Positions 31,490 through 32,860 of a stretch of DNA of 64,000 bases are shown here, in pieces. A model generated the notes under the pieces. It did not search any database, was not told the DNA's origin, and saw nothing but the letters and a program-made list of their open reading frames with translations. Made by a program: the position numbers and the translations under genes. Position 1 is the stretch's first letter; each line of letters opens with the position of its first letter. The stretch comes from Oligoflexia bacterium (GTDB lineage: Bacteria > Bdellovibrionota > UBA1018): positions 130,433 through 194,432 of the forward strand of contig CAIZRG010000051.1 in NCBI GenBank assembly GCA_903935335.1, in the 5' to 3' direction.

Positions 31490-32860
31490 TTACTGAAATT
31501 CTTCTGGTACTAAAATGCCTAATTGATCACAGTTATGGACCAACACACCCTCTGCATAATAATTATGATTTCCGTGAACCTCTAAATTATAAACAACGGA
31601 CTCCTTTTCTTCAGCTTGGACCTGATCAACTTTTACTGCTTCTCCTGAAATGCTTTGGAGTTGATCTCCTACTTTCAGATCTTTTGCTGCAATCCAGGAT
31701 TTCTGATTGATGACATAAAAAGGATGCTCTTGGGTAGCTCGTAGCTCTTTTCCAGCAAAGGAAAGTTTGATTAAACGTTCAGTGGTGTTAGACATTACTT
31801 TGTTCACAGGACTGGCCTCACAATTACCTCCCTGTTCCAACTGACAACTTAAAACAGAGTCCCCCTCTTGAACAGATGAGATCGGCCGAAAACCATACTG
31901 ACCCTTTTCATCTCCTGGTACACAAATCGAGGTTTCACCTGGAAAACACAAAATCTTAATGATCCCCTTATGAGCTACTAGCTCTGCAGCATGGCTAGAT
32001 TCAATTTTGGCTATTGCATCCTTATGATTTGCTTCAATTTTTGCATTTCTGGCTTCATCTCTTTTGAGCTGTGCGAAATCTAAAGCTTTGTCTAAAGCGA
32101 GTTTGGCCTCCAAACAGGTTTTAGACGCCTTCTTTGTTTTATCCATGAGATGAGTATTTGATGGGGCGCTGGCTAAATTGCTTTTAGCCTCTTCATGATC
32201 ACGAGCAGCTTTCTCATAAATACCTCGGGCAGTTTCAGCATCCTCTGTTGCTTGATCCGCAACGACCTGAGGATCGGAAGAAGCTCTATTAGCAGCTTTT
32301 TTTGCAGCACGCTTCGCACTGATGACAGTCTCCACCTCGGCCTTCCACTTTGTATATTCCGTTACCTCGACAGGCAAAAAACTCCATTGAGTCGAATTAT
32401 TACCTAGCTGCCCATGATCATTCCATCCCCAGCACTTTGCAGCTCCGTTGACGATCGCACAGGTGTGCTTATAGCCTACAGAGATATTGGTGACGCCTTC
32501 CTCTAATCCTTCTACTTGAACGGGGACTGGGCTACTCTTAGAGTTGTTGCCTAGCTGACCATTTCCATTCCAACCCCAACACTTTGCAGCTCCATTGACG
32601 ATCGCACAAGTGTTATCTTCGCCTGCAGAGATATTGGTAACGCCTTCCTCTAATCCTTCTACTTGAACTGGGACTAGACTCTTATCTACAGTCGAGTTGT
32701 TGCCTAGCTGACCAACATCATTCCGACCCCAGCACTTTGCAGATCCATTGACGATCGCACACGTGTGATCTTCGCCTGCAGCAATCTCACCTGCCTTTAC
32801 CTCTGTGAAACAGAGCATGGAGGCTAAAACACAAAAAACAGTAGATACATATTTACGCAT
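31490..32860 (-). CDS. secreted RCC1-repeat protein with a C-terminal Hint domain but no downstream cargo (ends 12 aa after HNC)
   Basis: Signal peptide followed by three repeats of GEDHTCAIVNG(S/A)AKCWG(R/W)N..GQLGNNS (RCC1 signature), then a coiled-coil region, then a Hint domain CFPGETSICVPGD ... VYNLEVHGNHNYYAEGVLVHNCDQLGILVPEEFQ*. Confidence 0.75.
   Translation of the reverse strand: MRKYVSTVFCVLASMLCFTEVKAGEIAAGEDHTCAIVNGSAKCWGRNDVGQLGNNSTVDKSLVPVQVEGLEEGVTNISAGEDNTCAIVNGAAKCWGWNGNGQLGNNSKSSPVPVQVEGLEEGVTNISVGYKHTCAIVNGAAKCWGWNDHGQLGNNSTQWSFLPVEVTEYTKWKAEVETVISAKRAAKKAANRASSDPQVVADQATEDAETARGIYEKAARDHEEAKSNLASAPSNTHLMDKTKKASKTCLEAKLALDKALDFAQLKRDEARNAKIEANHKDAIAKIESSHAAELVAHKGIIKILCFPGETSICVPGDEKGQYGFRPISSVQEGDSVLSCQLEQGGNCEASPVNKVMSNTTERLIKLSFAGKELRATQEHPFYVINQKSWIAAKDLKVGDQLQSISGEAVKVDQVQAEEKESVVYNLEVHGNHNYYAEGVLVHNCDQLGILVPEEFQ

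Follow-up and report, generated by a model that had tools for sequence, protein, structure and literature searches.

A catalytically complete Hint domain without cargo on an RCC1-repeat protein encoded upstream of a Hint-Ntox33 toxin gene in Bdellovibrionota

Introduction

In polymorphic toxins of the T2SS, T5SS and T7SS types (type II, V and VII secretion systems) the Hint domain stands just before the toxin and acts as the peptidase that releases it (Zhang et al. 2012, PMC3482391). The Hints of bacterial toxins are viewed as mere scissors that free a C-terminal toxin, and here we describe a locus that differs from this view. It lies on a 64,000-nucleotide stretch of an Oligoflexia bacterium assembly (GCA_903935335.1, contig CAIZRG010000051.1, positions 130,433 to 194,432), which we call the window, and consists of gene A, encoding an RCC1-repeat protein whose C-terminal Hint is followed by a stub of 12 residues, and gene B immediately downstream, encoding a Hint protein that carries an Ntox33 toxin. 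Our preferred reading, to which we give about an even chance, is that gene A has been maintained as a self-processing protein that serves the adjacent toxin as its binding partner, and that it is not a recently decayed toxin.

The closest described systems come from several directions. Bacterial intein-like (BIL) domains form a thioester and cyclise their terminal Asn, and they lack a +1 nucleophile on the C-extein (PMC4031507). In Tetrahymena, as set out in section 2.4 of PMC8616854, the BIL2 domain attaches its N-extein in trans to other proteins and needs no ATP for this. The Hog domain of Hedgehog proteins is a Hint followed by a sterol-recognition region, as described in a review that also covers the Hint chemistry on which our proposed mechanism draws (PMC7765530). 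Among RCC1-like propellers, BLIP-II binds beta-lactamase with picomolar affinity (PDB entry description). A literature search found no paper that combines RCC1 repeats with a Hint domain, and among the titles listed for Bdellovibrio and polymorphic toxins none concerned Hint domains or this arrangement. RCC1 domains are not discussed in PMC3482391, where the string occurs only within the name of Bathycoccus sp. RCC1105 virus.

Results

The Hint domain of gene A and its 12-residue stub

The open reading frame (ORF) of gene A (Table 1) coincides exactly with that given in an earlier note on this DNA, and the exact protein is also present in NCBI/ENA assemblies. Its C-terminal part matched Pfam PT-HINT (PF07591) with 67.4 bits against a cut-off of 27.7 over residues 323-443, and NCBIfam intein_Cterm with 31.4 bits against a cut-off of 15.6. 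The domain begins at Cys305 ('ILCFPGET'), has its block B at T376-Q-E-H379, and closes with H442-N443, which Cys444 follows; in alignments of 39-79 relatives the columns of Cys305, block B and H442-N443 are invariant or nearly so. At 139 residues the Hint leaves no room for an endonuclease. As the earlier note had claimed, only 12 residues (DQLGILVPEEFQ) stand between the HNC and the stop, and Pfam found no family in them.

We modelled residues 160-456 of gene A with AlphaFold2 (AF2) from a 39-sequence family alignment, obtaining a mean predicted local distance difference test score (pLDDT) of 90. Confidence was high across the Hint (91-98), and the stub was modelled poorly, with segment residues 289-293 and 295-297 below 50. 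A Foldseek search with the Hint model gave as its top match the Tetrahymena BIL2 domain (6Y75, E = 7e-13). Against the Clostridium thermocellum BIL domain (2LWY) the model had a target-normalised template modelling (TM) score of 0.89 and a root-mean-square deviation (rmsd) of 1.5 Å, and the sequence match had an E-value of 1.2e-9. Upstream of the Hint, what the earlier note called a long charged coiled coil was modelled as three long helices (segment residues 5-34, 38-72 and 77-142; block pLDDT 84-97). The N-terminus, MRKYVSTVFCVLASMLCFTEVKA followed by GE, reads as a putative Sec signal peptide, in agreement with the same note; we saw no lipobox before either of its Cys residues by eye, and in the AF2 model of a longer allele described below it forms a low-confidence N-terminal helix.

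Relatives that end in the same stub

An exhaustive phmmer search with the Hint and stub returned 20,906 proteins at E ≤ 1e-3, the best 150 of which we inspected; post-HN tails and N-termini were scored in about 128 Hint relatives, 51 of them with Cys at +1 (HNC type) and 40 bearing cargo. The closest single-Hint relatives (40-55% identity) mostly run from a signal peptide through a coiled coil, Hint and hydrophobic linker into a toxin. Two relatives end in stubs homologous to that of gene A: P0139 (660 aa), which finishes in ...VLVHNC-NKIGIPLPEDF, and P0145 (381 aa), which finishes in ...VLVHNC-NKSGISVPDIFSK. Both stops are genuine and lie inside their contigs. The N-termini of these two proteins are unrelated to that of gene A, P0139 having matches to Ricin_B_lectin (38.5 bits) and CDtoxinA (28.7 bits). 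The three stub-ended proteins, the Hints of which are 45-49% identical over 134 columns, retain every one of the four catalytic positions. The motif x3-G-[IV]-x-[VL]-P after the HNC was found in five of the 51 HNC-type relatives (gene A, P0139, P0145, gene B and P0159), and three of these five end at a conserved Phe or at most two residues past it.

Other relatives without cargo (P0132, P0133, P0144, P0170 and P0213) have tails of 14-44 residues that stop inside the hydrophobic linker or shortly past it. One of them, P0133, matched RCC1_2 with 177 bits and has seven CWG-type blade motifs. RCC1-type N-termini were present in two of the roughly 128 relatives, both cargo-less, and in none of the 40 cargo-bearing ones, so the earlier note was right to call the pairing of RCC1 with Hint unusual. 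Recognisable binding domains occurred on cargo-less members only, namely RCC1 (the window, P0133) and Ricin_B_lectin plus CDtoxinA (P0139), and among the best 150 of the 20,906 relatives no single protein combined RCC1 or a lectin with both a Hint and a toxin.

The same search met proteins with two to eight tandem Hints ending in HNK, HNKL or HNKF (P0128, P0177, P0216 and P0224), a cargo-less multi-Hint architecture; several of them have the N-terminus 'MKGTLFSADF...' in common. Peptides from the coiled coil and Hint of gene A gave no match in species-representative genome contigs, among which this organism is not included. A scan of genome and metagenome contigs with the back-translated stub pattern HNC-x3-GI-x2-P-[DE]-x-F gave 87 loci, which were chance matches or from Clostridia and contained no Hint stub. 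It did bring up an unrelated but widespread secreted family of Clostridia (L006-L091) in which 'LT-HNCPNTGIMLPE.F.P' follows the signal peptide and about 200 more residues come after it.

Recurrent placement upstream of a second Hint gene

Five loci (the window, L002, L003, L093 and L094) have a cargo-less Hint gene and, 20-83 nt downstream of it, a second gene that encodes a signal peptide, a coiled coil and another Hint, with or without a toxin. At the loci of P0139 and P0145 the next Hint gene follows after 20 nt (L002) and 58 nt (L003), and in L003 the downstream gene comes with a toxin as well as a small immunity-like ORF. The gap is 83 nt at L093 (P0132) and 20 nt at L094 (P0170), where an integrase fragment interrupts the downstream gene. 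The Hints of P0139 and P0145 are only 37-38% identical to those of their own downstream neighbours and are closer to the other stub-ended Hints, so these pairs are not recent duplicates. Hint genes of the toxin type also occur alone (L097, L098) or in toxin-toxin tandems (L096). An orphan cassette in L097 (8375-9055, P0153) starts in the middle of a Hint and has a different toxin and a small ORF of its own, which indicates that recombination can occur within the Hint in these proteins.

In the window, the spacer between A and B shrinks to 30 nt if gene B starts at an upstream TTG. Genes A and B are probably co-transcribed, as a scan found no terminator-like or promoter-like site between them. 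At the protein level they are 44% identical over 183 residues, through the Hint and into 'xLGIxVP', and past the HNC their homology, in DNA as in protein, reaches only 'xLGIxVP(E..F)' and then ends. The earlier note had suggested that gene A might have lost a toxin tip. Comparison of the spacer with the post-Hint region of gene B found no remnant of a linker, pre-toxin module or toxin, and gene A holds no copy of the 140-nt handle of gene B (direct-repeat family D1); a recent deletion is therefore not visible, though an old one may have occurred. Recent gene conversion between A and B was rejected, the two being about 60% identical in nucleotides with no high-identity tract, as was a read-through or frameshift fusion, since two stops (TAA and TGA) lie between the genes and their frame relation is not kept in L002 and L003.

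RCC1 blades and blade-number alleles

The repeats of gene A matched Pfam RCC1 (PF00415) in three stretches with 98.3 bits against a cut-off of 21.7, and RCC1_2 with 51.4 bits; a search of the sequences of solved structures matched them to UVR8 (E = 3.7e-36). The RCC1 repeats and the Hint that the earlier note had read from the letters both score above their Pfam cut-offs on the one protein. Its count of three repeats holds for the window only. The 90% cluster of gene A also contains a 557-aa form with five blades (P0001, L001) and a 657-aa form with seven (P0394, on L100, a contig of 431,822 nt), and outside the repeat array L001 (about 2.5 kb) and L100 (about 13 kb) match the DNA of the window with 100% identity. 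By comparison with the seven-blade allele, the three blades of the window correspond to blades 1, 2 and 7, the window allele lacking 603 nt across a 42-nt exact repeat and the five-blade allele lacking 300 nt across a 95-nt exact repeat. These forms may be either real in-frame deletion variants, reflecting rapid repeat contraction in the population, or assembler shortcuts. The longest exact repeats at the blade array (29, 56 and 95 nt) are all shorter than the final assembly k-mer length of 141; collapse through long exact repeats is thus unproven, and lower k steps could still collapse the array.

The AF2 model of the seven-blade allele was a complete propeller of 28 strands with pLDDT 95-98, and it superposed on UVR8 with a TM score of 0.89 and an rmsd of 1.7 Å over 367 columns and on BLIP-II with a TM score of about 0.8. 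On this model the organism most likely makes a full propeller.

Gene B, its cassettes and the rest of the window

The window has no Hint genes besides A and B (Table 1). Gene B runs from a signal peptide through a low-complexity region and coiled coil to a Hint (Cys209 to Asn351), then the stub-like 'KSLGIPVPVIPELAGFQ', an A/G-rich hydrophobic linker and Ntox33. Residues 353-440 (30140-30403, minus strand) form the A/G-rich hydrophobic segment after the Hint and have no Pfam match. In gene B and in P0148, P0161, P0166 and P0193 the motif 'Y.G.Q.Y[DE]..' closes such a segment, which looks like an uncatalogued pre-toxin or membrane-insertion module. The DUF4279 protein next to the toxin is presumed to be the immunity protein for Ntox33, and the Ntox33 and DUF4279 pair was also found on the unrelated contig L096. 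Further copies of the gene B handle lie at 28820-28959 and 28054-28193 (88-100% identity within family D1) and belong to two orphan cassettes. In cassette 1 the toxin tip (28479-28715) is out of frame with the linker and is accompanied by a presumed immunity ORF of 81 aa (28237-28482).

Table 1. Features of the gene A and gene B locus, with positions in the window unless another contig is named.
Feature	Position	Strand	Basis
Gene A, RCC1-propeller / helical stalk / Hint / 12-aa stub	31490..32860	-	ORF and Pfam; 456 aa, ATG start
Signal peptide (predicted), aa 1-23, MRKYVSTVFCVLASMLCFTEVKA	32792..32860	-	predicted from sequence by eye
Three RCC1 blades, aa 24-170, tandem DNA repeat of ~147-150 nt	32351..32791	-	Pfam, repeat family D2, Tandem Repeats Finder (TRF) period 147
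Blade-number polymorphism region	window 32394-32833; L001 200-867; L100 6000-7974	- (window)	assembly comparison
Charged helical stalk, aa 164-301	31958..32371	-	AF2 model, three long helices
Hint (PT-HINT / BIL-type), Cys305 to Asn443	31532..31948	-	Pfam, NCBIfam, catalytic-block alignment, AF2 and Foldseek
C-extein, Cys444 and stub DQLGILVPEEFQ	31493..31531	-	sequence; homologous stubs in P0139, P0145
Gene A stop codon	31490-31492	-	sequence
A-B spacer, 72 nt to ATG of 'MFSKYS'	31418..31489	-	sequence; ATG preceded by AAGGA
Gene B, Hint-Ntox33 toxin, 555 aa	29792..31459	-	Pfam PT-HINT 50.3 bits, Ntox33 44.8 bits (cut-off 28.4)
140-nt handle in gene B, linker 'TEFLPGQAGEASSSSTTTPAMAPQAG'	30000..30139	-	direct-repeat family D1
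DUF4279 gene	29383..29841	-	Pfam 69.1 bits
Orphan cassette 1: handle, frameshifted toxin tip, immunity ORF (presumed)	28237..28959	-	ORFs, three-frame translation
Orphan cassette 2: handle/linker remnant only	28028..28193	-	repeat search, translation

The window is chromosomal, with genes for DnaB, S6, DnaK, TatC and GS-III. Its DnaK is 82-86% identical to the best named relatives, which are metagenome-assembled genomes labelled Bdellovibrionia, Oligoflexia or Bdellovibrionota, and other matches reached 87%. An Rfam scan of the window gave no RNA family. Directly upstream of gene A, a 745-nt uncalled gap holds a phage-type lysozyme (PF00959; 33078-33476, minus strand) split into ORFs of 63 and 64 aa, and this split makes a pseudogene probable. 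A PIN_3 domain at the far end of the array of toxin cassettes spans two ORFs of 66 and 63 aa (27482-27897, plus strand). Farther away are a 409-aa protein (25900-27129, plus strand) that combines YdcK-type beta-solenoid repeats with a RING finger at its C-terminus (Prok-RING_4, zf-RING_5) and resembles a eukaryote-like E3-ligase module, here carried by a Bdellovibrionota chromosome, and a 1496-aa ORF without a Pfam match (17249-21739, minus strand).

Discussion

How the locus compares with described systems

Gene B is a textbook polymorphic toxin, and the locus as a whole resembles the PT-HINT toxins of PMC3482391 in its Hint family, its predicted Sec export, its toxin and immunity pair and its neighbouring orphan cassettes. 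Gene A departs from them. It has an RCC1 N-terminus and no toxin after its processing peptidase, the next gene downstream is gene B and not a cognate immunity gene, and the handle common to the orphan cassettes is absent from it. Nor does it look like a canonical intein, as its N-extein is a variable binding domain with a stalk and its C-extein amounts to 13 residues. With type-A BIL domains (2LWY; Amitai 2003, Dassa 2004), the best solved match, gene A has in common the His-Asn end, the residence in a non-conserved secreted protein and the lack of a homing endonuclease; unlike them it has Cys444 at +1, which brings its Hint chemistry closer to that of a class-1 mini-intein. By analogy, gene A may resemble the Tetrahymena BUBL BIL2 (6Y75/6TMM) as a Hint that passes on its N-extein through a thioester, although BIL2 is a eukaryotic, cytosolic domain that lies between ubiquitin-like domains and has a lysine as its acceptor.

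Like Hedgehog proteins, gene A would pair a secreted functional N-terminal domain with a C-terminal processing Hint that has no cargo domain downstream. Hog Hints are not known to have a C-terminal His-Asn or a +1 Cys, whereas in gene A the His-Asn-Cys junction is intact and the tail is a mere 12 residues modelled as disordered. Among RCC1-like propellers (BLIP-II, a secreted Streptomyces protein, UVR8, RCC1 and the RCC1-like domains of HERC2) the modelled seven-blade allele has close structural counterparts; they carry no Hint fusion, and the window allele has only three blades. AB toxins such as ricin, with its B chain, and CdtA/C offer a parallel in that the presumed binding and toxic parts are here encoded in adjacent genes and that P0139 has lectin domains in the place of the propeller. 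We know of no AB toxin with a self-cleaving Hint on both subunits. The parts of the locus are therefore known, and what appears to be an undescribed variant is a cargo-less, catalytically complete Hint on a putative binding protein that is paired with a Hint-toxin gene.

A proposed maintained, self-processing partner of the toxin

Three observations carry the case for gene A as a maintained partner of the toxin: the stub is conserved along with the point where it ends, no catalytic residue has been lost, and the same gene order recurs between loci. Together with the seven-blade allele, these also fit the second suggestion of the earlier note, a Hint-processed protein with the propeller as its functional part, better than its first, the loss of a toxin tip. 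By analogy with Hint and BIL chemistry, an N-to-S acyl shift at Cys305 after export would place the propeller and stalk on a thioester, and cyclisation of Asn443 would then cut off the stub. The thioester might be resolved by water, freeing the propeller and stalk, by Cys444, which would splice them onto the 13-residue tail, or by another nucleophile. Comparison of the loci suggests that the propeller could be the target-binding half of a two-gene system, in which a lectin of the ricin-B/CdtA type takes its place elsewhere. The toxic half would be the probably co-transcribed gene B, with its Hint, hydrophobic linker and Ntox33, against which DUF4279 would protect the producer, and contact between the helical stalks would probably hold the two proteins together in the manner of an AB toxin.

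Several observations weigh against this reading. The gene after P0133 (L092) is on the opposite strand and no toxin follows, and a cargo-less gene is absent upstream of P0131 and P0137. In gene B and P0159 the stub motif runs on into cargo, so that the stub is the start of a longer C-extein in some relatives, and the varied tail ends of the other cargo-less relatives would also be expected from repeated truncation at module borders. The Hints of A and B in the window are fairly close relatives (51% identical), and tandems of the L096 type offer a simple deletion route to the order of A then B. In a neighbour-joining tree of 79 Hints, which was star-like, the stub-ended ones did not group; we dropped the argument from their monophyly, and a single old origin of the class is not demonstrated. 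Finally, the near relatives of gene A are all identical in DNA outside the repeats, so no ratio of nonsynonymous to synonymous substitution (dN/dS) could be calculated.

Decay, ligation and artefact as possible alternatives

The principal alternative, which we regard as somewhat unlikely though a serious contender, is that gene A was once a complete toxin gene and that all the DNA between its Hint and the next toxin gene was lost through deletion or recombination, leaving an expressed or silent relic. It keeps its weight because the Hint tree does not resolve. Polymorphic-toxin loci are recombination hot spots, and this one has a frameshifted orphan cassette and the remnant of another; from complete Hint-toxin tandems such as those of L096 a single deletion would suffice. 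The motif that continues into cargo in gene B and P0159, the varied end points of cargo-less relatives, the scattering of the stub-ended Hints in the tree and the unstable blade number (3, 5 or 7) are all in keeping with decay. Set against it, nothing of a linker or toxin was found after the gene A stop, and the reading frame, predicted signal peptide and catalytic residues are all intact. Homologous stubs, moreover, end within two residues of one another in three loci, despite Hints that are only 45-49% identical and N-termini that are unrelated, and the arrangement recurs in five loci. Nor did the best 150 relatives include an RCC1 or lectin protein with both Hint and toxin.

A quite improbable but more far-reaching alternative is that gene A is a ligation platform, in which the thioester is resolved by a specific nucleophile and not by water, so that the binding module would be joined covalently to the toxin or to a surface after export. 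The nucleophile might be the N-terminal Cys that Asn cyclisation by the Hint of gene B would expose on the linker and Ntox33, in a reaction of the native-chemical-ligation type, or else an amine of the cell surface or of the target, or a surface lipid. Both Hints have the full set of Cys1, His-Asn and Cys+1, and the closest solved structures are BIL domains, including BIL2, for which the cited section of PMC8616854 describes conjugation in trans. The two genes, besides being adjacent and probably co-transcribed, have the first C-extein residues in common and a stalk beside each Hint. This support is purely inferential. The C-exteins of the downstream toxins in L002 and L003 lack the stub motif, the mechanism does not require a conserved stub, and an extracellular reaction would need a high local concentration.

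That the truncated tail, or gene A itself, is an artefact of a mis-assembled repetitive metagenomic locus is very improbable, for even though blade counts of 3, 5 and 7 occur in otherwise identical assemblies and the junction repeats (42 and 95 nt) are shorter than k = 141 and longer than early k, at least three independent assemblies (the window contig, which is L004, and L001 and L100) agree in every base of the Hint, stub, stop and gene B, and independent loci from other samples end alike, so that the doubt touches the blade count and not the cargo-less end.

Significance

Were gene A merely a relic, it would still record how such loci decay at module borders. If it is instead the maintained binding partner that we favour, and its pairing with gene B is functional, the locus would be a two-component polymorphic toxin in Bdellovibrionota, in which targeting and killing are encoded apart and each protein processes itself. 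Hint thioester ligation has been documented so far in Hedgehog, with cholesterol, and in ciliate BUBL proteins, with ubiquitin-like conjugation; gene A offers a natural bacterial test case for such ligation, whether of protein to protein or of protein to surface. Small secreted mini-Hints with Cys1, Cys+1 and short defined exteins may also be of use as protein-ligation tools. If ligation were true, swappable binding modules (propeller or lectin) would be coupled covalently to swappable toxins outside the cell, adding a combinatorial level beyond the genetic swapping of cassettes.

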